Part shown: piece after piece, positions 3,544 through 46,901 of the stretch
How the letters are laid out: each line of letters begins with the position of its first letter
Position numbering within the stretch: the first letter of the stretch is position 1
Source: Escherichia phage GaoY1-9D
Sequence record: PP971806.1
Strand: one strand, 5' to 3'
DNA: 50,368 bases
Made by a program: the position numbers and the translations under genes
Notes under the pieces: generated by a model
What the model was told of the DNA's origin: nothing
What the model saw: the letters and a program-made list of their open reading frames with translations, nothing else
The model's database searches: none

Positions 3544-3730
3544 GATCAAGAATGGTGACGTGATCAAGTGTATCGGCGCGCGCGGTTATGAGTTCTTTAC
3601 TGGCTGCGAGTACACAGTGGAAAAAGTTGATTCCCAGGGATACGTTTACGTCTACAGTGACGAGGGGAACAAGGTCGCGATCGACTACCCTGTTTGCCCG
3701 ACGTATGGAACTTTCAAAAAAGTTGATTGA
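3536..3730 (+). CDS. hypothetical protein (64 aa)
   Basis: internal ATG 3536 with RBS GGAGAAAG; same frame as track ORF 3473..3730. Confidence 0.45.
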   Translation: MSKIKNGDVIKCIGARGYEFFTGCEYTVEKVDSQGYVYVYSDEGNKVAIDYPVCPTYGTFKKVD

Positions 3731-25185: not shown

Positions 25186-25421
25186 TCCTTAGACCCATGG
25201 TCAGCCACTGAACCACCGTAACCTCCACCAGCCTTGCTCTCAATACCAGCGTAGCGCACATCAACTTCACCAGCTGGTACAATCACGCCACCTTTCCACT
25301 TAGCCACGCACACGCCGTTTGCTTGCGTTGCACACCACCCTTCAGGGCGAGGGCCAGAAGAACAACCAACTGTCATGATCACTGCTGCTGCGATGATTGC
25401 CGATTTGATTAAGTTAGTCAT
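25176..25421 (-). CDS. lipoprotein, candidate superinfection-exclusion protein (Llp/Cor-like)
   Basis: signal peptide with lipobox MTVGC; directly upstream of putative RBP. Confidence 0.55.
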
Positions 25422-25505
25422 TTTGTTTTCCTTAGTAAGTATTTTTCGTTTCGATGAAGTAACTATACATGCAACTATCGTCGGAGTCTTTAACTATTCG
25501 TGCTA
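25422..25505 (-). promoter_or_regulatory. intergenic cassette copy (minus orientation)
   Basis: reverse complement reads TAGCACGAATAGTTAAA ... GTATAGTTA ... CATCGAAACGAAAAAT. Confidence 0.5.
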
Positions 25506-25938
25506 TTGTATACACGTAACCAATGTAACTCGATGTATACAATCCCATCCGCGAGAAATGATATACGCACTGTTACGCCAATTTACGCAATGGTTACATT
25601 AAAATATCTATATATATCAACCTTTTACTCTTATTATTATTATTATATATATTACTGTGTATATCATGTAACTACTTATATAGAGTGTTCCGCTTATAAA
25701 TTTCTAATATGTACATTTATACAGTATTTAATCACAAGCATACCAATGCACCATCCGCCAGAAGCGATATACACGATATACACGCTATTTACATCTAGCT
25801 ATAGCTGGGCATGATAGCCATTTTATGTAACTAGCGCCAATGTATACACATGATTACAGATACATACACGTAACCACTTGACTAATGCAACCAGTCGCGT
25901 ATAGTTAGCCACATCAACAACGAACGAGGATTAAAGAG
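25506..25938. repeat. AT-rich non-coding region with GTATACAC-type iterons and (TTA)n/(TA)n tract
   Basis: repeated TGTATACAC and GATATACAC; ACACGTAACCA twice; about 100 bp related to 46005..46100. Confidence 0.6.
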
Positions 25939-26979
25939 ATGACTAAGCCACTGTTTCAATATTTCACTTCAGAAGAAATGAGCAACGATTTCTATCACAG
26001 CAAAGATGAATGGACTGCTGAGTATGTCTCTGGTTCATCGTTGAGCAAGATTCACAGCTCATGCCCTGCGGCGTGGAAGTTTGAAATGAACTCTACGACT
26101 AAAGCTCTTGTTTTCGGCACTCAGTCACACACAAACTTTGAGAGCAAGACGCTGTTTGAACGTCAGTATCGCCGAGCACCGAAAGAAAGCGAGATTAAGA
26201 ACGTAATCACAAGCCAGGCAGCATTGGCAACGAAATTAAAATCATTTGGCCTGACTGGTACAAGCGGAAAGCAATATCCAGAACTGATCAAAATGATGGT
26301 TGATTGTGGCGAAGAACTCAACGTGATGTGGCTGATTGATATGATCGCACAGTGTCAGGCATGGGCCGATGGCGTGGAACTGGTTAAGGCGGAAGACTAC
26401 GATGCTTGCGTAAGTATGCGTCAGGTTCTTGAAATGATTCCTGAGCATAATGCTTGCATGAACAGTGAGACTGCATTCCGTGAGTATTCTTTATTCGGCG
26501 TGATTTGCGGTGTAAAAGTCAAGGTTCGTCTTGACCACGTTGACATCATTAAAGATCCAGAAGCAATACGCCGCATGGGTTACGATCCTGAGGTTCACCC
26601 TGAAATTGTCGTCATCACTGATTACAAAACGACAATGATCGCTAACCCGACAGAGTTCCCGCGCCTGGCTTTCAACCTTGGCTATTATCTCAAGATGGCA
26701 TTGCAGCGTGACCTGTTCGTCAAGTGCTTTGAAGAAACGCGTCCAGTTGTTGTGCGCTTGCTGGCCCAGGAGAAGAAAGAGCCTTACTTGCCTATGGCGT
26801 ACCGGATGAGCAGCGATCAGCTTAAGATTGGTCGCGCTCAGTATATGAGTGTTATTCACACGTTCTCAATGTGCGAGGCGAATGATGTGTGGCCTTCATA
26901 CAGCAACGGCGAACCTGAGATTGAGCTTGAAACTCCTGATTGGATTAAAAAGCAGTTCAAGCACATTCTGGAAGCGTAG
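25939..26979 (+). CDS. exonuclease of PD-(D/E)xK type (recombination exonuclease, putative)
   Basis: LDHVD ... VVITDYKTT motif arrangement; upstream of annealing protein and SSB. Confidence 0.5.
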   Translation: MTKPLFQYFTSEEMSNDFYHSKDEWTAEYVSGSSLSKIHSSCPAAWKFEMNSTTKALVFGTQSHTNFESKTLFERQYRRAPKESEIKNVITSQAALATKLKSFGLTGTSGKQYPELIKMMVDCGEELNVMWLIDMIAQCQAWADGVELVKAEDYDACVSMRQVLEMIPEHNACMNSETAFREYSLFGVICGVKVKVRLDHVDIIKDPEAIRRMGYDPEVHPEIVVITDYKTTMIANPTEFPRLAFNLGYYLKMALQRDLFVKCFEETRPVVVRLLAQEKKEPYLPMAYRMSSDQLKIGRAQYMSVIHTFSMCEANDVWPSYSNGEPEIELETPDWIKKQFKHILEA

Positions 26980-28202: not shown

Positions 28203-28230
28203 TAAAAGGCCCCTTTCGGGGCCTTTTTTA
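28203..28230. terminator. bidirectional intrinsic terminator
   Basis: hairpin AGGCCCC-TTTC-GGGGCCT with flanking A and T runs. Confidence 0.65.
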
Positions 28231-30381
28231 TGAAACTCTAATGTTAAGGTTGCTTCCGTTATTTCTGTAGAATCCACCAACTGGAACGCCGACAGACGCC
28301 GCGGCGGAATCGCTATCAGCATCCCTGATTATTAACCCCCTATATTCAGAGCCAGCGTCATATGAATATCCATTTATTGTTGCCCCTCCAGATAATGAGT
28401 TAGTCTTAAGTGATAGACTACTATCTGTAACCTTGCTACCTCCGTAAGCGTAAATACCAAATTGCGAGCTGCACTTTCTCATGTCAACACCGTTAGCAAC
28501 AACAAGCCCATCAGGGTTGTTCCCAACTTTTAATCCGGCTAGCTTAGCTCCGTAGGTCGGTTCTGTTGTTGCATTCGGGTTAATTTGCTCATCAGACGCA
28601 ACTATTGCCCCACCCGTGATTGTTAAGTCAATATTTCCATAAGTTCCATCTATGGTTACAGCCCCGCCATCGCTTGACGTATATCCACCTCCAGTGATAA
28701 TGCAGTTATCTATGAAATTGTTAGTACCAGAGCCTTCGCCATCCCCAATGAAAACAACAGCGCATCTTTTAGCAACATCAAGCCACATGTTTGAGAATCT
28801 TGAGTACGACGTCCCGATGCACTGAACATGTATCCTTGTGTACTCTATCTTCCCACCAATAAAGGCAACACCAGAATGCGGACCCAACCTTATACCAACA
28901 CCAACAGTTTCCGACAATGAAGCAGGATCACTTCCTGAGTGGTATCCAATATCATTAATGTACATGCTTGTAATTGTTGAATCGCTTATGTTATTTGATG
29001 AATAGAACCCCGCTTCAACACACCCTGTAATCTGATCTCCGTAAGACCTGTGTAGACCTGCATTATCTGTCCTCAAACCAATCCTTGCGGCTCTAAACGT
29101 GCAGTTATTCCTTAAATGGTTATTGAATGACTCGGAGTTTGAGTTGTCGCTAAATCTCCTTCCGTATTCAATACAACAAACATCAGCACCCCTTGCGTCT
29201 ACGTCAATATTTGATATAGCTGTCTGCCTACAACCCCTAAAATCAAGAATCGGGTCAAGATATCCAAGAGAGTGATCACCAGCGAGCGCTATGGTTCCAT
29301 TCATATTTAAACCGCTATCAGAATAAGCCCACGAGGATAAAGGCCCAACAATTGACTTGCTACTACGCATCAAAATTGGTTTTTTAACGTAGTAATAATC
29401 ACCAATGTAGCACTCATTTACATATGGAGATGAAAGGCACAGGTTTATTGCTACCGAGTTATCAACGCTTGAATTGTGTGGGATTGCACCAAAAAACCTA
29501 ACATCAACAGGTCCTTTAAAAATACCACCAGAAAAACCATCCCTAAAAATCTGCGAAGATTCTCCAACGTTAATTACCAACCCGCCATCAGGTGTCATAT
29601 CTCTTGATTTTTCAACAGAAAAAATACCACCACCGCTATCATTGGTAGAAGAAATATTTTTAATAAAGATATAGTCACCATCATTTACATTACTATCAAG
29701 AACATCTCTTACAAAATTGAATGTCTTGAATTTTTGCTCTGATTTTGAGTAAACATCAAGGTTCTGCCTTGCAAGTTGCTTATCTGTTAAGTCCGATAGT
29801 GCCAAATCTTTTCTCAATAAGTTTTGCGTATCAAGTGATGCGGCATAATCAGCTGCCTCCTGAGCAGATGCTGCGGCAGAATCTTTGTCATTACTTGCCG
29901 AGATTGCGCTTGCGGCTGCGGCATTCTTATCAGATGATACTTGAGCAGCATCTGTGGCAACCTGGCTTCCAATAGTAACAACATCACTATGCTGCGAGTT
30001 AACCTGAGAAACCTTTGTTTCAAAGTCATTTGCATCGAAGTTGTTGAAAGCATCAACAGCATCGGCAACCTCTGTTTCGCGTGACTGATAGTAACGCAAA
30101 GTCTCGGCAACACCCTGAGCCAAACCCTGAACTGTAATCCCATCGTGCGCAAGGATCGCGTAACCTGTACCTGCTGGTGCTGTTTCACCATTTGGATTAT
30201 ATACAGATAAAGACGTATCACTAGCGATCTCAGTGATAGTGTAAATCTGCACCGGATCAGTTTTAAATACGATTGTGGCACCAACTCGAATTAGCGTCAG
30301 CGGCATAGCCCATTGAGTTCCAGCGCCAGTAACTTGACCGTTTTCTGTAAGGCTGGCTGTGCCAGTATCATAAATTGACAT
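28228..30381 (-). CDS. lateral tail fiber / tailspike-like protein
   Basis: about 718 aa; Ala/Ser-rich linker; Gly/Asn-rich repeat-like C-terminal region; start ATG 30381 with RBS AGGAG. Confidence 0.65.
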   Translation of the reverse strand: MSIYDTGTASLTENGQVTGAGTQWAMPLTLIRVGATIVFKTDPVQIYTITEIASDTSLSVYNPNGETAPAGTGYAILAHDGITVQGLAQGVAETLRYYQSRETEVADAVDAFNNFDANDFETKVSQVNSQHSDVVTIGSQVATDAAQVSSDKNAAAASAISASNDKDSAAASAQEAADYAASLDTQNLLRKDLALSDLTDKQLARQNLDVYSKSEQKFKTFNFVRDVLDSNVNDGDYIFIKNISSTNDSGGGIFSVEKSRDMTPDGGLVINVGESSQIFRDGFSGGIFKGPVDVRFFGAIPHNSSVDNSVAINLCLSSPYVNECYIGDYYYVKKPILMRSSKSIVGPLSSWAYSDSGLNMNGTIALAGDHSLGYLDPILDFRGCRQTAISNIDVDARGADVCCIEYGRRFSDNSNSESFNNHLRNNCTFRAARIGLRTDNAGLHRSYGDQITGCVEAGFYSSNNISDSTITSMYINDIGYHSGSDPASLSETVGVGIRLGPHSGVAFIGGKIEYTRIHVQCIGTSYSRFSNMWLDVAKRCAVVFIGDGEGSGTNNFIDNCIITGGGYTSSDGGAVTIDGTYGNIDLTITGGAIVASDEQINPNATTEPTYGAKLAGLKVGNNPDGLVVANGVDMRKCSSQFGIYAYGGSKVTDSSLSLKTNSLSGGATINGYSYDAGSEYRGLIIRDADSDSAAASVGVPVGGFYRNNGSNLNIRVS

Positions 30382-30405
30382 AATTTCAACTCCTATTTTT
30401 ATTGA

Positions 30406-30440
30406 TAGCACGAATTGCTAAAGCGCAGTATAGCATTACT
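30406..30440. promoter_or_regulatory. cassette-like dyad copy without downstream gene (orientation ambiguous)
   Basis: TAGCACGAATTGCTAAA 30406-30422 then GCAGTATAGCAT; followed by terminator. Confidence 0.35.
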
Positions 30441-31472: not shown

Positions 31473-31946
31473 TCATTCTTTAGCTTTTCGTGCTGCTTCG
31501 TTTGCCGCTTTAATTTTTCGCCATGATCGACACTCTGGTTTAGTGGCTAGTTCAGCCTCAGTGACGACGCGCAGCATGTGACGCTTTTTGCAACGCAGCG
31601 TCAGCGGCTTACCGTTCCCATCGAATTGCAGATCAGGTCGGCAGAATGTAGCGCGGAATCCTTCGCCAGTTCGCTTATATCGGTTGTGCGCCAGTTGAGC
31701 GCCGCGAGCCGACATCATTCCTCGTTTAAACCATTCCTCAACGGCCTGGCGACTAACCTTCAGTTGTTTTGCGATATTGGCCTTCGTTCCGTAGAAGTCG
31801 AGAACCATTTCCAGTCGCGCCCGAAGCCCGGCCTTTACTTCATCTTTTAAAACGTAGTAACCTGAGGGTCGTTTCCGTTGCTTTTTGTCTTCAGTTCGGA
31901 CTGTTCCGTTGTTGCCGTTAATGGTTCGCTTGTCGACTGCATTCAT
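31473..31946 (-). CDS. HTH DNA-binding protein (putative transcriptional regulator)
   Basis: helix-turn-helix-like segment TKANIAKQLKVSRQAVEEWFKRG; basic protein. Confidence 0.5.
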   Translation of the reverse strand: MNAVDKRTINGNNGTVRTEDKKQRKRPSGYYVLKDEVKAGLRARLEMVLDFYGTKANIAKQLKVSRQAVEEWFKRGMMSARGAQLAHNRYKRTGEGFRATFCRPDLQFDGNGKPLTLRCKKRHMLRVVTEAELATKPECRSWRKIKAANEAARKAKE

Positions 31947-31959
31947 CTCATCACCTCAA

Positions 31960-32038
31960 TAGCACTTTTTGTTAAACATTGGTTTCGAAGGTTGTTATTA
32001 TAACGTCAATCGAACGAACATGAAAGGCATTTAATACT
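31960..32038 (+). promoter_or_regulatory. intergenic cassette copy in divergent region
   Basis: TAGCACTTTTTGTTAAA; TGTTATTATAAC; AATCGAACGAAC; RBS GAAAGG. Confidence 0.6.
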
Positions 32039-34141
32039 ATGGCTATGCGCATTAAATCCATTAAAAAACAGATAGAGGAACTCGGTCCTCAGAAAATTAA
32101 AGAGATTCAGGATAAATTCACGTTCGGTGACATGGTTCCTTATGAATATCAATGCGTAATGTATGATGAGATCGGCAAGCGCATTGCTCGCTACAGACAT
32201 CCATTCATTGTCAAGGCGTCGGTGTCGGCAGGTAAAACAATCGGCTTTGCCATGATCGCATCGCGCGTCAAAGAGATGGGCTTGTCGATGATGATTCTTG
32301 CACGCCAGGGCGATATAGTCGCTCAGGATAGTGAGGAGATCTCAAACTTCGGCGTTCCTAACTCAGTTTACTGTGCTGGCCTGAACACAAAATCAGCTTA
32401 CTTCCCTATCGTTGTAGGCTCGGAAGGTTCGGTTGCGAACGGTCTGTTTAAGGCGCTCGGTGACTTTACACCAATGGTGCTTGGGATTGATGAATGTCAC
32501 CAGGTGGATTGGGAAGACCTTGCCGCCGCCATCGACAACGAAGAGACGATTGAAATGATGCTCACTGAAAAGGATGAGCGTGTATTCGTTGACTACCCGA
32601 AAAACAGCGAGGGCTATGTCAATGGATACCTTGATGGCGTAGAGGTTGGCGTTCAGGTGATGGATAAGCAATTGCTAATCAGCAGGAAGACTGGCGAGCC
32701 TGTTCTCGGCACCAAGCGAAGCCAGTACACTATCATAATCACTGAGTTGATGCGCCGCTGCAAAGAGAAGAACGGGAAGGAATTGCGCATCTTCGGCATG
32801 ACTGGTTCTGAATTCAGAGGGACAACTCCGATTGTTGTCGATAACCCTAAGTTACCTGGGTTCTGGCGTGAGCAGGTTACTAACATCGATACCAATTACC
32901 TTATTGAGTTCGGCTCCGTTGTTCCAACCATATTCGGAAGTGTCGGTGATGCTGGATACGATCTGGATGAGTTCAAGGCATCAGGCCAGGACGGGACGGC
33001 AGATTTTAGCCAGAAAGAAATGAAGGCGATGGAAAAGAAAATCCATGACAACGCCAGCATGACAAAGCGAATTATGGGGATGGTCGTAGAGGAAGCGAAA
33101 AAGCGAAATGGCGTACTGATTACGTGCGCAGGCCAGCGCCATTGCAAAGAGGCGTCGAGCTATCTGCCACCTGACGCTACCTATGAGATCATCACGGAGA
33201 AGACGAACACCAAAAAACGACAAGCGATACTGGAGGCGGCGAACCGTGGCGAGATCAAATACATATTCCAGGTGGTAGCGCTAACCACTGGCGTTAACGT
33301 TCCATTTTGGGATTTTTCGGTAATCCTGCGCAAGATCGGATCGCTTACACTGTTAATACAGTTACTTGGTCGCGGTATGCGATTGCTTAAGCCATGGCAA
33401 AAAGCCATGGGAATGGTTAAGGAAGATCACCTGGTATGGGATTTTGCTGGCACGATGGATGAGCTTGGTCAGCTTTACTTCGATCCGATTCTTGAAGAGG
33501 CTCAGTACCAGCGCCGCTTTGATGGTAAGAAAGAACCGAAAAAATGTGAACTGTGCGGAACCGAGAACAGTTTTTACGCCCGCCGCTGCATTCACAGAGA
33601 CGAAAACGGCAATCGGTGCGAGTATTTCTGGAAGTCTCGCATCTGCGAAGACCAGATTGATGATCGCACTGGAGAGGTTATCGTTAAGGGATGTGGCGCT
33701 AAGAATGACGTAGTGGCGAGAATATGCCGTTGCTGTGATGTTAGCCTGAAAGATCCCAATGATAATCTGACTGGTAAGGCTTACACCAAAAACGACTGGT
33801 GCACAGTTAACAGCTTTGAAGTAACACTGACACGTAACCAGACTGGTGTCCTTTATCGGTACGACCTGACAGACTCAGTGGGAGTTAACTTCATCGCGTA
33901 TGAGAAGTTTTTCCCTCAATCAACGGCGCAGGTATGTCACACGATATGGAAACAAAAAGGGGTATTGCCTCACGTGCATGACAGTAAGATCGCAAAATTA
34001 ATGGCGGCTTACAGAAGTGCCAAAATGATTTTAAACAACGCCCACCACATAGCACATCCTGTGCGGGTAACTCACCGCAAGAATGCAAAAGGTGAGGATA
34101 TTATCTCACGTAAGGATTTCGGATTGGACGGTAACTTATGA
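32039..34141 (+). CDS. SF2 DNA helicase (DEAD/DEAH-box type)
   Basis: Walker A SVSAGKT; motif II IDECH; 700 aa; C-terminal Cys-rich zinc-finger-like region. Confidence 0.8.
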   Translation: MAMRIKSIKKQIEELGPQKIKEIQDKFTFGDMVPYEYQCVMYDEIGKRIARYRHPFIVKASVSAGKTIGFAMIASRVKEMGLSMMILARQGDIVAQDSEEISNFGVPNSVYCAGLNTKSAYFPIVVGSEGSVANGLFKALGDFTPMVLGIDECHQVDWEDLAAAIDNEETIEMMLTEKDERVFVDYPKNSEGYVNGYLDGVEVGVQVMDKQLLISRKTGEPVLGTKRSQYTIIITELMRRCKEKNGKELRIFGMTGSEFRGTTPIVVDNPKLPGFWREQVTNIDTNYLIEFGSVVPTIFGSVGDAGYDLDEFKASGQDGTADFSQKEMKAMEKKIHDNASMTKRIMGMVVEEAKKRNGVLITCAGQRHCKEASSYLPPDATYEIITEKTNTKKRQAILEAANRGEIKYIFQVVALTTGVNVPFWDFSVILRKIGSLTLLIQLLGRGMRLLKPWQKAMGMVKEDHLVWDFAGTMDELGQLYFDPILEEAQYQRRFDGKKEPKKCELCGTENSFYARRCIHRDENGNRCEYFWKSRICEDQIDDRTGEVIVKGCGAKNDVVARICRCCDVSLKDPNDNLTGKAYTKNDWCTVNSFEVTLTRNQTGVLYRYDLTDSVGVNFIAYEKFFPQSTAQVCHTIWKQKGVLPHVHDSKIAKLMAAYRSAKMILNNAHHIAHPVRVTHRKNAKGEDIISRKDFGLDGNL

Positions 34142-34228
34142 TTACAGATTTGTTTTATGTGTGTAAAAGTGATTCTCTTAGATGGAAGGCTAAATCAAGT
34201 AAAAAACAAAAGAACAACATAGGCGAAG

Positions 34229-34639
34229 TTGCCGGGAAGCCCAAACAAAAATGGATACATAAGCGTAATGGTGATGGGTGAAAGGATTATGGCTCATCAC
34301 ATAGCCTGGGAAATTCACCACGGCTTTAGTGTTCCTTATGGTTTTGAAATAGATCACATCGACCATAACCCAAAAAACCAAGCCAAAGATAACTTGAGAT
34401 TGGTAAAAAGATATGATAACGCAAAAAATCTTTCAATGTCAAAATCAAATACTAGCGGAGTAACTGGAGTTTCACTATTCAAGAAAACTGGAAAGTGGAA
34501 AGCATCAATAAAGCATAACGGAAAGACGTATCACTTAGGTTATTTTAATGATATAGAAGAAGCAAGGGCGGCAAGAACCGAGGCGAATATTAAATATAAC
34601 TTCCACAAAAATCATGGAGATAAAAATGTCAATAATTGA
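34229..34639 (+). CDS. HNH homing endonuclease with AP2-like DNA-binding domain
   Basis: HHIAWEIHHG ... EIDHIDHNPKN; C-terminal SGVTGV ... YHLGYF; AT-rich; exact start uncertain. Confidence 0.7.
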   Translation: MPGSPNKNGYISVMVMGERIMAHHIAWEIHHGFSVPYGFEIDHIDHNPKNQAKDNLRLVKRYDNAKNLSMSKSNTSGVTGVSLFKKTGKWKASIKHNGKTYHLGYFNDIEEARAARTEANIKYNFHKNHGDKNVNN

Positions 34640-35057
34640 TAAAGGCGATTACCTGGAGTATTACACTCCAGACAAATCGGATACATGGACCGAGAACAAG
34701 CACCAGGTCGATTGCGTGACCTGGACGAAGGTTAGGCATTGTGATTTGCTGTTCTGGCACGCCGTTAATGAGAACAAGAAGCACATCCACACGGCGTTAA
34801 AGGATGCTCAGAGCGGGTTATTGAAGGGGGTTAGTGACTTTGTATTCCTTATAGGTCCGTTCGGTAAATATCCTTTCGGAGCCATAGAATTAAAGCGCGT
34901 CAATAAGAGCGGAAAAGGAAAGGCATCACCAGTCAGTAAGGAGCAGAAAGATTTCCTCCGGCGCGTCCGTGAGCGTGGCGGATTCGCGGCGGTGGCATAC
35001 GGCCAAGAGGAGTATAAGAAAGCTGTTCATGACATGCTGAATAGCACGAATTGCTAA
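34626..35057 (+). CDS. VRR-NUC-like nuclease (putative)
   Basis: GVSDFVFLIGPFGKYPFGAIELK (D ... ELK); protein ends MLNSTNC, read through cassette dyad. Confidence 0.45.
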   Translation: MSIIDKGDYLEYYTPDKSDTWTENKHQVDCVTWTKVRHCDLLFWHAVNENKKHIHTALKDAQSGLLKGVSDFVFLIGPFGKYPFGAIELKRVNKSGKGKASPVSKEQKDFLRRVRERGGFAAVAYGQEEYKKAVHDMLNSTNC

Positions 35058-35115
35058 AGAGGAATCAGTGAGGTGGTGTATTATCACCTCATCGAAACGA
35101 AGTAACCAACCAAGG
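35042..35115 (+). promoter_or_regulatory. intergenic cassette copy
   Basis: TAGCACGAATTGCTAAA; hairpin GAGGTG/CACCTC with TATTAT; CATCGAAACGAAG. Confidence 0.6.
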
Positions 35116-35123
35116 AAATCAAA

Positions 35124-35396
35124 ATGAAAAAGTCAATCATCGCTCTACTGGCAGTTGTGGCAATGGCAGGTTGTGCAGAAGATACCAAGTTTTACGATTG
35201 CGGTAAGGAATCATTCACAGTAACCAAGTCACAGATTGTTTCAGACAAGGGCGTTGTTATTGAGCGTGAAGGCGATCACTATGAACTGCAAACTTTCTTG
35301 GGGAAGGCGGTTTACAACGTGACTGAAAGTCAAGTCAAGGTTAGCGTAGGTGGGTTCGTTGCCGTAAATAACTGTAAAGTTACCGAGGTTAAATAA
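35124..35396 (+). CDS. small lipoprotein
   Basis: signal peptide with lipobox AMAGC; adjacent to dam start. Confidence 0.55.
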   Translation: MKKSIIALLAVVAMAGCAEDTKFYDCGKESFTVTKSQIVSDKGVVIEREGDHYELQTFLGKAVYNVTESQVKVSVGGFVAVNNCKVTEVK

Positions 35397-35397
35397 G

Positions 35398-36126
35398 ATG
35401 AACGACTCAAATGACAAAGATACCCATGACGCATTCGTTAGCTTTGAACAGATCGAGCGTGAAAACTTTGTTACCAATGCGCTTGTTCCTGGGAACGGTC
35501 ATTACCAGGCGGTCAAGCCTGATACCTTCTATCGGGTAACTGGAAACCGATACGCAGGAAGCAAGACGCCTGACGCTGTGCGTGACCTTTGGGCAACTGA
35601 CAGAGAAGTGATCTCATGGATGGAGTCGCGTTATGGTAAGTACGACATTGACGCCGCCGCCAGCGCTAATAATGCTGTTTGCGAAAAGTTCTACAGCGAA
35701 CAAGTGAACTGCCTCAAAATCTGGTGGGGTAGCAATAAGCACATCTGGCTGAATCCTCCGTACTCACATCCAGATCCTTTCGTGAAGAAAGCGATTGAGC
35801 AAATGGAACACAACAATCAGATTGATATGTTGCTTCCTGGTGATAACTCAACGGCGTGGTTTGCCGAAGCACGACGCAACGCGGCTGAAATCATCTGGAT
35901 TGAGGCGGACATCACAGAGATTGACAGTCAGGAATATTGCCGGACGGGGCGGTTGGCATTCATCTCTGGACTGACCGGAAAGCCTGTCGATGGCAACAAT
36001 AAAGGTAGCGTGATTTTTGTCATGCGAAAACTGCAAGAAGGCGAGACGCAGAAAACGACATACGTTAGCGTTGCCGATATTTGTCCTGGCGTAAGCCGTA
36101 AGAAACCACGTAAACGGAGTGTTTAA
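35398..36126 (+). CDS. dam: DNA N6-adenine methyltransferase
   Basis: catalytic NPPY motif (WLNPPYSHP). Confidence 0.8.
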   Translation: MNDSNDKDTHDAFVSFEQIERENFVTNALVPGNGHYQAVKPDTFYRVTGNRYAGSKTPDAVRDLWATDREVISWMESRYGKYDIDAAASANNAVCEKFYSEQVNCLKIWWGSNKHIWLNPPYSHPDPFVKKAIEQMEHNNQIDMLLPGDNSTAWFAEARRNAAEIIWIEADITEIDSQEYCRTGRLAFISGLTGKPVDGNNKGSVIFVMRKLQEGETQKTTYVSVADICPGVSRKKPRKRSV

Positions 36127-41996: not shown

Positions 41997-42346
41997 TTAT
42001 TTATACGCCGCCTCAAATCGATAGGTTCCGCATACTGTTTCGAATCCGACATCATCCGAGCGGTACAGTTGCCAGGCTACGCCGTCGTTGTCGAAGATGT
42101 AACCAGCGTTACTACCGAGTCCTGCGTGCATGTCAACCTGATAGCGTTTACCTTGCGTGAAGTCTTTTTTAACGGAAGACTTGTGATTAATCTTCGTCAC
42201 GTAAAGGGTTTTGGTCTTAATGTATCGGCCATTGACGTCCAGGTTAACCCACTTGCCATCAACCTTGATTTGCTCTACCTCATCTTTCACGCGAGCTTTC
42301 AGAAGGCGGTTATCGGAGGTAACGAAGTTTTTGGTGGTGATTGTCA
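41997..42346 (-). CDS. hypothetical protein
   Basis: internal ATG 42346 with RBS AAGGAAA within track ORF 41997..42458. Confidence 0.45.
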
Positions 42347-42357
42347 TTTTGATTTCC

Positions 42358-42528
42358 TTATTTAGCGTAATTGGTAGAGAATTTAGCGCCAGCAAACTTT
42401 GATGGTTTACGGTTTGCATTGATTGTTTCATAAACCTTCTTAGTATCGCGAGCGTCAATTACCTCAAAAACCATCAAAGCGACCATTGGGAAAACTACTG
42501 CGATAACCATCAAAGTTAAAATAATCAT
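42358..42528 (-). CDS. small membrane protein (56 aa)
   Basis: internal ATG 42528; hydrophobic MIILTLMVIAVVFPMVALMVF. Confidence 0.35.
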   Translation of the reverse strand: MIILTLMVIAVVFPMVALMVFEVIDARDTKKVYETINANRKPSKFAGAKFSTNYAK

Positions 42529-42544
42529 TTTCTCTAGCTCTCGT

Positions 42545-42607
42545 TGTTTCGTTTCGATGGAGTAATAGTATCGCATCCTTGCGATTGTGTTTTAACAAAA
42601 AGTGCCA
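42545..42607 (-). promoter_or_regulatory. intergenic cassette copy (minus orientation)
   Basis: minus strand TGGCACTTTTTGTTAAAA; hairpin ATCGCA/TGCGAT; CATCGAAACGAAAC. Confidence 0.55.
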
Positions 42608-42855
42608 TTTGCTAGTTTGACATATCAATCCAAGAAAATACAAACTAACTCTATTCTAAATCAAACGGTATTGACCTATTGTAAAAGTACATATAACAAT
42701 CATAGTTATGTTTTGGTTGCACCGTCTCAGATAGACACGCCTTTACAGAATCGCGGTCAGATGGATCTACATGCTCAGCCTTAAGTAATGCTAAGATCTG
42801 GTTATAGCGCACCATTAGTTGTACAATTTGCTCCTGCCTCATATTATCTACCCCC

Positions 42856-44859: not shown

Positions 44860-45666
44860 TTATATGTCGCTGAAAACTTCACAGCTTTCACTGCAAGATC
44901 CGGTGTCGAATGATTTGGCCCCTCTAACCCTTGAGGCTATCTCATCTCTCGACTGTGGAAACATCTGTATAATGTCACCGATTGAGCGCCTTCCTCTGTA
45001 CATGTCAGATGATGATTCCTTTTTATTGTGCTCACTAATTGTGTCAATGAATAGCTTTGCAAGTTCCGGCTCATCTTTACACGCAAGCGCAATCTTAAGC
45101 TCTGACTTCTTGATGCAGAAAACGCAGTTACCAAGATGCTCATCAATTTCAAGGTCAAATGGCATGTCATGCCAGAAGTCGATAATGTCCTGTTTTTCGA
45201 AATCAGATATGTCAGCAAGGTAACTGAACCCATCGACGGGTTTTAGTCTCTTTGGCTCATCGGCACGAATACCAATCCATCTCTGATAATTACCCTTACC
45301 ATACTTCTCCTCGCAGTACTTCTCGAATGGCTTAGTCTTCATCCTGTTCGTACAGAATGGCCCGCCTTGGTATGGATTTCCGTACTTCCTTAGCATTCTA
45401 ATCCACCCAGTCAGATCATGGTGAATGTCATCGACGCTGACAACTTCGAAAGATGGAGCCCCGCGGAACTTATCGCTGGGCAAACATCTCAGGCAGGTTA
45501 TCGGCCTTGAAAGCATTGATGAGACTTTACGGATAAACTCATATGTCTTCGGATGCTCTGCTCCAGTGTCCATATAAATCACCTCCGCGTCAGGATGAAT
45601 CTTGAGTACCTCAAGTGTCATGTATGCCGAAGTCCTGCCGCCGCTAAAACTAATTACCTGATTCAT
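44860..45666 (-). CDS. PAPS reductase-family PP-loop ATPase
   Basis: PP-loop SFSGGRTSAYM at N-terminus; ATG 45666 with RBS AGGAG. Confidence 0.7.
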   Translation of the reverse strand: MNQVISFSGGRTSAYMTLEVLKIHPDAEVIYMDTGAEHPKTYEFIRKVSSMLSRPITCLRCLPSDKFRGAPSFEVVSVDDIHHDLTGWIRMLRKYGNPYQGGPFCTNRMKTKPFEKYCEEKYGKGNYQRWIGIRADEPKRLKPVDGFSYLADISDFEKQDIIDFWHDMPFDLEIDEHLGNCVFCIKKSELKIALACKDEPELAKLFIDTISEHNKKESSSDMYRGRRSIGDIIQMFPQSRDEIASRVRGAKSFDTGSCSESCEVFSDI

Positions 45667-45744
45667 TTCAACTCCTATTTGTGCGCTAAATAACAACCAG
45701 ATGATAGCAACTAACCCATGAATGGTCATTAGCAAAAAGTGCTA
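45667..45744 (-). promoter_or_regulatory. cassette-like element upstream of PAPS reductase gene
   Basis: minus strand TAGCACTTTTTGCTAAT at 45728-45744. Confidence 0.45.
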
Positions 45745-46373
45745 TTCGTTCGATTTATGGATTGTTGCAGCTATTGCAATGATTCACATGACTATTGCAC
45801 AGATAGCAATATTGCATCTATTGCAATGATGTTTTCTATTGTTGCGAATTGAGCAATGATTCATTGATGGGGGGAATGATGGGGTGATCAAGGATCACCT
45901 GATCGACTGGTAGGATTTTCCCGCCACACGCTTCTAGCGTATACGCGTTATTTATGTTATGCCATGTAGACACACCAGCACTCCGTAGGAATCATGTACG
46001 CATATCACGCTTAATTACGCCATGGTTACATTAAAATATCCTTATATAATAACCATTTATCTATATTATTATTATTAATATATATATATGTAGATAATGT
46101 AGATAGTGGATATGTGATATTGCGATAGTTTTCTATGATATTTTCCTACACCTGTAGGAATATGACGACATTGTAGGAATAAAAGGGCATGTAGGGGCCC
46201 ATTTGCTAAAAATCCTTATCTACAAACTATACGCAGACTTTACATTGAGCTATATCTGGGGCGATTGGTGGAAATATGTAACTAATCAGAAAATTTGCAC
46301 CGATAACACTTGATAACACGTAGATGTGTGATACTATGGAATCATCTTAGCGAAGACCAACCAATCAGGAGTA
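45745..46373. repeat. AT-rich non-coding region with TATTGCAATGAT repeats, GATC-rich palindrome, GTATAC and GTAGGAAT motifs and (TTA)n/(TA)n tract
   Basis: TATTGCAATGAT at about 45772 and 45819; GGTGATCAAGGATCACCTGATC; TGTAGGAAT three times; core related to 25560..25665. Confidence 0.6.
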
Positions 46374-46901
46374 ATGAGTATGTCAGAGCACAAAGAAGCA
46401 GTAAGCCTCGGTGACGTTATCCGCTACATGGCGGAGCAAGCGCTCAAGTCCGAGAACCGCAGCTACCACGTCCCAATCCATCTAATAGCTCGCCAGGTTT
46501 ACGGCCTCACATCTAGTGATATAGGAGGCATAAGTCGTGAGGATCTGGATGTAGGTGGCAAGTACAGTATGGCAAAGCTGAAGGCGTCATATGTCGCCAA
46601 TACGGTAGCCAGGATGCCAGAGATACAGGCGGCAAACGTTCGTGCAAAACTTTCAATTAAGGATGGTGATTTCGGTGATGACGTCGAGGTTCGGTGTGCT
46701 TATCTGTCTTTGGTTGATGGCGCAATCCAGACAGGAAAGCGAGTGAAGGCAAACTGCCAGATTGCAGAGAAGGCTGTGAGCGACTTTAAGGTCAAAATAC
46801 TCAAGCTGATGCCATCCGTGACTAACTTTGAGGGCGATGAGATTACAGGAGCCATCAAGGCAATCAAAATGTACCAGGAAATGATTAGGGAGACGAAATA
46901 A
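46374..46901 (+). CDS. hypothetical protein
   Basis: ATG 46374 with RBS AGGAG; first gene after AT-rich region. Confidence 0.5.
   Translation: MSMSEHKEAVSLGDVIRYMAEQALKSENRSYHVPIHLIARQVYGLTSSDIGGISREDLDVGGKYSMAKLKASYVANTVARMPEIQAANVRAKLSIKDGDFGDDVEVRCAYLSLVDGAIQTGKRVKANCQIAEKAVSDFKVKILKLMPSVTNFEGDEITGAIKAIKMYQEMIRETK

Follow-up and report, generated by a model that had tools for sequence, protein, structure and literature searches.

The window analysed here, a stretch of 50,368 nucleotides from Escherichia phage GaoY1-9D (sequence record PP971806.1), very probably carries a free-standing homing endonuclease gene (HEG) of the HNH_3 plus AP2 type, present as a copy that is broken as written (34138-34639, plus strand). 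The phage is a Nouzillyvirus-like coliphage (Drexlerviridae, T1-like) and this region is 92-94% identical to the one of Nouzillyvirus phages such as PH1062, 50EP and BUCT-XGG-1. The gene order is superfamily-2 DNA helicase (32039-34141, plus strand; 700 codons, Pfam Helicase_C and ResIII, annotated as helicase in relatives), HNH-AP2 gene and VRR-NUC nuclease gene (34626-35057, plus strand; Pfam VRR_NUC, E = 1.2e-9), the last being the target of the insertion and the host gene of the element. HNH-AP2 proteins, which have an N-terminal HNH and a C-terminal AP2 domain, are a described HEG family of phages, cyanobacteria and ciliates/protists (Magnani et al. 2004, ref. 45 in PMC10448857). Thousands of HNH-AP2 genes are annotated in the phage database. 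Interpretation of the insert as a mobile element is strongly supported by sequence comparison with the empty and occupied sites of related phages.

Reading frames, frameshift and domains of the endonuclease gene

The earlier note on this DNA had assigned a single ORF to positions 34142-34640. Such an ORF does not exist, as the frame is closed by a TAG at 34220-34222 and the N-terminus of the protein is encoded in another frame. ORF A (34138-34281, plus strand; 47 codons) extends from an ATG at 34138, which is the original VRR-NUC start codon, to a TGA at 34279-34281. Its codons 1-33 are the genuine N-terminus of the HEG product (MITDLFYVCKSDSLRWKAKSSKKQKNNIGEVAG) and the last 14 form an out-of-frame tail. 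The second frame, which carries HNH_3 and AP2 (34229-34639, plus strand), is open from after the TAG to a TGA at 34637-34639, and both frames are open across 34223-34278. Alignments to the copies of the same lineage in L005, L006 and L012 locate the +1 frameshift at a GGG run with one extra G (34234-34236, plus strand). The window reads GCC GGG AAG where contigs L005 and L006 read GCC GGA AGC; a third intact copy, L012 (JGI Ga0079226), has the same reading at the indel as these contigs, and the fragment P0013, which reads GEVAGSPNKNGY, also agrees with the intact relatives.

Removal of one G yields 501 nt, that is 166 codons and a stop. The corrected translation is over its full length 98% identical to P0001, an intact metagenomic protein of 166 aa, and 88% identical to P0002, also metagenomic. 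It matches PHROG 99 at 1e-55, and in tblastn the joined-frame protein can be aligned over its entire length to intact HNH-AP2 endonucleases from thousands of phages. An intact ORF is thus found in the orthologues P0001, P0002 and L012 but not in the window, where the frameshift cuts codons 1-33 off from the catalytic and DNA-binding part. The window copy, as written, is broken and probably dead. An N-terminally truncated product may be initiated at an internal start codon (TTG 34229, or ATG 34268, 34274 or 34289). According to the AlphaFold2 model (see below) it would miss the N-terminal β strands formed by residues 6-8 and 14-16, and a restart at any of the ATG codons would also cut strands 41-45 and 48-51. 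Exact matches to ORF A, to the four possible ORF B products, to VRR-NUC and to the helicase were searched in a collection of 15 billion proteins and none was found.

The extra G aside, L005 and the window are identical over 34186-34648, as opposed to 5-22 mismatches in most flanking 100-nt bins. The extra G being their sole difference in this segment, it either arose by mutation very recently or is a homopolymer error. Comparison of the frame-corrected gene with L006 (31 synonymous and 24 non-synonymous differences) gives a dN/dS of 0.145, which indicates that the lineage was recently functional and kept under purifying selection and leads to the same two explanations for the frameshift: inactivation in the very recent past, or faulty sequencing. 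We lean towards a genuine and very recent inactivating mutation, which would be the stage of the homing cycle at which an HEG degenerates. There is also a considerable chance that sequencing or assembly miscounted a short homopolymer and that the real phage gene is intact, its enzyme being functional and active. The indel does fall in a G run and is the only difference from L005 in 463 nt, all four other copies of the lineage are in frame, and the dN/dS value bears no sign of relaxed constraint. However, a run of two to three G is short for a homopolymer error, and broken HEGs are common, as illustrated by the in-frame TAA of the BUCT-XGG-1 gene and by a frameshifted HNH-AP2 gene reported from ICP1 phages (PMC10448857).

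The two domains announced in the earlier note could be located. Its four motifs (HHIAWEIHHG, EIDHIDHNPKN, SGVTGV and YHLGYF) are all encoded in the 34229 frame, which is matched by PHROG 99 (“HNH endonuclease”) at 3e-51. The HNH_3 nuclease domain (34289-34423, plus strand) was identified by its match to Pfam HNH_3 (PF13392; E = 1.4e-13, 50.6 bits against a cut-off of 24.8), covering profile positions 2-45 of 46. The residues invariant in an alignment of 56 sequences, D72-H73 (34352-34357), N85 (34391-34393) and N97 (34427-34429), are all kept in the window frame (EIDHID...DNLRL...DNAKN). Predicted catalytic roles were assigned by analogy with I-HmuI: a general base at D72-H73, a structural Asn and a metal-binding Asn. 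The predicted catalytic His is the one of EIDHID and none of those in HHIAWEIHHG.

The AP2-type DNA-binding domain (34457-34585, plus strand) is a three-stranded sheet followed by a helix. Its match to Pfam AP2 (PF00847; E = 4.8e-5) scores 24.0 bits and stays under the gathering score of 33.3, so that the domain does not pass at profile level. A sequence search of the PDB with phmmer returned only a marginal AP2 match (WRI1, E = 0.28), making a structure-based search necessary. An AlphaFold2 model was built on P0001, which is 98% identical to the window protein, from the 56-sequence alignment (mean pLDDT 92.2). It features strands at residues 111-114, 119-126 and 129-136 and a helix at 139-152. 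The top Foldseek match of this model in the PDB is I-HmuI (1u3e; probability 0.97), which also supports the HNH_3 assignment. Its C-terminal part matches the AP2 domains of TEM1 and ERF1 (7et4_A, 7et5, 1gcc_A) with probability 1.00 and an rmsd of 0.9-1.7 Å over 46-53 columns; the WRI1 chains (7wq5) are also matched with probability 1.00 but at an rmsd of 2.5-5.2 Å. The AP2 assignment for the window protein rests on this model of its close homologue, in which the two-domain HNH plus AP2 architecture is confirmed.

Empty sites, occupied sites and spread of the lineage

Alignment to the empty alleles of PH1062 and 50EP defines an insertion of 491 bp relative to HEG-less phages (34149-34639, plus strand). 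The earlier note had advised a search for an empty site in relatives and had held that presence of the gene at this position in all of them would refute its mobility. That condition clearly fails: the HEG is absent, and no compensating gene is found, in eight of the ten closest phage relatives (PH1062, P817, TH27, p111, CJ19, TH21, 50EP and TH30), whose empty junction is one contiguous match of 131/131 nt and whose spans are exactly 491 nt shorter than in the window. Phage TLS also has an empty site at the identical insertion point (ATG GTT ACT GAT / AAA GGT GAT TAT CTG GAG TAT TAC; the slash marks the position of the insert).

In the two other relatives, ETEP102 and BUCT-XGG-1, this exact nucleotide position is occupied by other HNH genes. 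These are 58-63% identical to the window HEG in nucleotide sequence and 47-48% in amino acid sequence, and for this reason are considered separate lineages. The gene of ETEP102 (L002) is intact (165 codons, WYD65321.1). The different HNH-AP2 gene of BUCT-XGG-1 (L001, 2339-2821) has its in-frame TAA at codon 48 and is annotated as two CDS of 47 aa and 104 aa. Three occupied sites were seen in Nouzillyvirus-like genomes; the gene is disrupted in two of them, by a frameshift in the window and by a nonsense codon in BUCT-XGG-1. Another small indel polymorphism of the module is a 43-codon ORF of ETEP102 (3592-3723), found between a small gene of 90 aa and dam, that the window, PH1062 and 50EP lack.

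At least three other phage backbones have a member of the window HEG lineage inserted at this very position, with 89-99% nucleotide identity. Identity to the window is 99.0% for the HEG of L005 compared to 90.4% and 93.5% for its helicase and VRR-NUC flanks, respectively; the corresponding values are 88.8% versus 63.7% and 61.6% for L006, whose backbone is Tlsvirus-like (~76% identity to TLS), and 91.4% versus 61.4% and 67.2% for L012. Empty sites, presence of one lineage in diverged backbones and an HEG identity far above that of its flanks bear out the earlier proposal of a mobile homing endonuclease in the replication module. The zero-mismatch tract shared with L005 is confined to the HEG, ending at most 10 nt past its 3′ end and ~50 nt inside its 5′ end, and long co-conversion tracts are not preserved as judged from this alignment. 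Changes in the L005 copy (2336-2836), three non-synonymous and one synonymous, all fall within its first 16 codons. One of them is W16C, at a position where W is kept in the window, L006 and L012, and all substitutions between the window and L005 HEGs are in the first 50 nt.

A stretch of 36 nt of the gene (34571-34606, plus strand) is identical to the HEG of ETEP102 and the last ~65 nt of the two genes are ~90% identical, compared to ~50% elsewhere. This patch is missing in L006, and suggests recombination between rival HEGs at their 3′ ends, or with the target flank. A phage collection of 50,697 records contains no close DNA relative of the HEG, the only match there being ETEP102 (74% over the 3′ half). 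There is also no close relative in IMG/VR, the best match having 51% amino acid identity, and an exact pattern scan of it gave no match. On these sequence comparisons the gene represents a new HEG lineage with a defined target, less than 60% identical in amino acid sequence to anything in the phage collection.

The insert has a G+C content of 0.354, compared to 0.478 in the helicase gene and 0.488 in the VRR-NUC gene, in line with the AT-richness noticed before. Only 0.8% of the 491-nt windows across the 50 kb have such a low value. The strongest other low-G+C islands (0.33-0.37) are found at ~25250-26100 and ~45600-46500. They were rejected as further mobile genes as they are mostly intergenic, lying between divergent genes (25422-25938 and 45736-46373), and contain no HEG; both are probably promoter or regulatory regions. 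Weaker dips occur at ~29200-29900, within a tail-fibre-like ORF (28228-30411), and at ~42250-42850. A tblastn search of the window with the corrected protein detected no second HNH-AP2 copy at E < 1. Relatives have two to four HNH-AP2 copies at other sites (four places in BUCT-XGG-1, three in TH30 and ESCO41, two in CJ19), implying that in the window the homing sites used elsewhere in this phage group are empty.

This distribution bears on whether the protein could be a domesticated phage factor, either an AP2-type regulator or a nuclease that works with the helicase and VRR-NUC in replication or recombination. The gene sits in a replication/recombination module with its translation probably coupled to the helicase, and co-option of an HNH protein has a precedent in HK97 gp74, which acts with terminase (PMC10448857). 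We consider a domesticated factor very improbable, since the gene is absent from eight of the ten closest relatives with nothing to compensate for it, is replaced by HNH genes of separate lineages in the two others, has spread horizontally across backbones, and is disrupted both in the window and in BUCT-XGG-1.

Junction design and expression

In the empty alleles the TGA of the helicase gene overlaps the VRR-NUC ATG (ATGA) and VRR-NUC starts with ATG ATT ACA GAT AAA GGC GAC TAC (MITDKGDYLEYY). The allele of PH1062 and 50EP contains GGTAACTTATGATTACAGATAAAGGCGACTACCTGGAATATTAC across the site. The window departs from the empty alleles after ATGATTACAGA and rejoins them at TAAAGGCGA, which gives the coordinates of the insert and places it 11 nt inside the VRR-NUC coding sequence, with an ambiguity of 2-3 nt in its boundary due to GA(T) being present at both ends. 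The HEG, described before as lying between the helicase and a VRR-NUC-like gene, does adjoin both, but it is inserted within the coding sequence of the second rather than between the two. It takes over the VRR-NUC start codon and first codons (MITD), and the helicase stop codon now overlaps the HEG start codon (ATGA). This overlap puts the HEG in place for translation coupled to that of the helicase, and we infer such coupling from the sequence arrangement.

The loss of the VRR-NUC start is matched by a replacement at the other end of the insert. The last 24 nt of the HEG contain a putative Shine-Dalgarno sequence (GGAG, 34616-34619) followed six nt on by an ATG (34626-34628; whole element 34616-34628, plus strand), from which VRR-NUC reads MSIIDKGDY..., its N-terminus being MSIID... 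instead of the MITD... of the empty alleles. VRR-NUC most likely begins at this ATG and not at the upstream ATG 34614, because the gene calls of L005 and L006 use it, placing the start 14 nt before the HEG stop. The ORF delimited mechanically starts at ATG 34614; the product from 34626 is likely 143 aa long. The 3′ end of the HEG therefore overlaps the start of the downstream gene, as had been noticed, and the GGAG and ATG brought in there give VRR-NUC predicted translation start signals of its own. ETEP102 (MAIKDKGDY) and BUCT-XGG-1 (MKTDKIDY) have their own new VRR-NUC starts in an equivalent arrangement, and a new Shine-Dalgarno sequence and ATG are conserved at the 3′ end in all three HEG lineages. 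A scan for promoters and terminators over 31800-35500 gave counts equal to or below those of shuffled sequences, and nothing specific to the HEG.

Expression of the HEG could in principle take place in spite of a real frameshift if ribosomes bypassed it by a +1 slip of low efficiency, for example of tRNA-Pro at CCC-A (34240-34243), a device that would throttle a potentially toxic nuclease. Enterobacteria are prone to +1 slips at CCC-N. A slip at CCC-A would yield ...GEVAGKP-NKNGYISV..., one residue off the intact protein, and since both frames are open there a slip anywhere in 34223-34278 would give a near-native product. Yet the four other copies of the lineage can be translated without a frameshift, and the site, which is not conserved, lacks a stimulatory element as well as an A-site codon that is slow or a stop. 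The case for a bypass is wholly inferential and we regard a programmed one as highly doubtful, an inactivated copy being the preferred reading.

Many HNH endonucleases are intron-encoded, as is I-HmuI, and the insertion point does fall 11 nt behind an ATG within a coding sequence, but a group I self-splicing intron of VRR-NUC carrying the endonuclease ORF can be dismissed almost with certainty, given that the ORF fills the insert from first to last nt with no room for a ribozyme core, no Rfam family matches 33800-35100 at E ≤ 1, and VRR-NUC has a new Shine-Dalgarno sequence and ATG downstream in all three HEG lineages. A transposon or insertion sequence was also rejected, as the insert has no terminal inverted repeats and no target-site duplication beyond the 2-3 nt GA(T) ambiguity.

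Related systems, proposed homing and significance

Within the HNH-AP2 family the window HEG can be compared to the “IPA-HNH” genes of ICP1 (gp59, gp209 and the frameshifted gp115-116; PMC10448857). Both types encode HNH plus AP2 proteins, are free-standing and sporadic, lie beside essential replication genes and undergo occasional frameshifts. The ICP1 proteins are, however, too diverged to be recognized by Pfam HNH_3, of which the window HEG is a canonical member (50.6 bits). Its lineage also has, unlike the ICP1 family, a target of its own at the 5′ end of VRR-NUC in Drexlerviridae. Comparable in design are the HEGs of ETEP102 (WYD65321.1) and BUCT-XGG-1 (WVX93024.1/WVX93023.1), which belong to the HNH-AP2 family and share the insertion point, the capture of the start codon and the provision of a new VRR-NUC start.

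I-HmuI of Bacillus phage SPO1 (PDB 1U3E), the best structural match, is a site-specific phage homing enzyme to which the window HEG product can be likened, and has the same HNH ββα-metal nuclease after an N-terminal β region. It differs in being encoded by a group I intron, in its C-terminal helix-turn-helix in place of AP2 and in being a nicking enzyme, and its sequence identity to the window protein is ~20%. The Mob family of T4 (MobA-E) resembles the window HEG in that its HNH_3 genes are free-standing insertions, located either within conserved phage genes or between them. The T4 mob genes spread by homing with co-conversion of their flanks. Mob proteins combine HNH_3 with a zinc-finger, not AP2, and are found in myoviruses at other targets (domain comparison in PMC10448857).

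The homing steps proposed for the lineage are modelled on the established behaviour of HNH homing endonucleases such as I-HmuI and T4 Mob. In a cell infected by both types of phage, the AP2 domain would bind the target in an HEG-less genome, at the conserved 5′ end of VRR-NUC, where the predicted target is ATG-RTY-ACW-GAT/AAA-GGY-GAY-TAY-CTG-GAR-TAT-TAC (the slash marks the insertion point). The HNH ββα-metal site would then nick or cut near this target, and recombinational repair from the HEG-containing genome would copy the HEG into the HEG-less one.

A bolder synthesis can be drawn in which the helicase/VRR-NUC junction of Drexlerviridae is a contested landing pad for at least three HNH-AP2 lineages, ~50% diverged, that share the same cassette design and recombine at their 3′ ends, and in which a +1 slip at CCC-A allows the window copy a trickle of expression. 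If true, it would define a cassette design made of start-codon capture and a replacement Shine-Dalgarno sequence and ATG, and the window copy would be a frameshift-throttled homing endonuclease. We assign a very low probability to this combined scenario and retain the interpretation of a mobile HEG whose copy in the window is broken as written.

The relevance of this locus is mainly for annotation and for phage comparative genomics, and no new biological question is opened by it. It should be annotated as a disrupted HNH-AP2 HEG and neither as two hypothetical ORFs nor as one intact gene, and 34626 should be entered as the start of VRR-NUC. The conserved target and the natural filled and empty alleles make the specificity of AP2-guided cleavage directly testable. 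The locus offers a natural example of an HEG that has entered a host gene a few codons after its start while carrying replacement translation start signals for that gene, of competition between several HEG lineages for a single site, and of the cycle of gain, spread and decay of an HEG.
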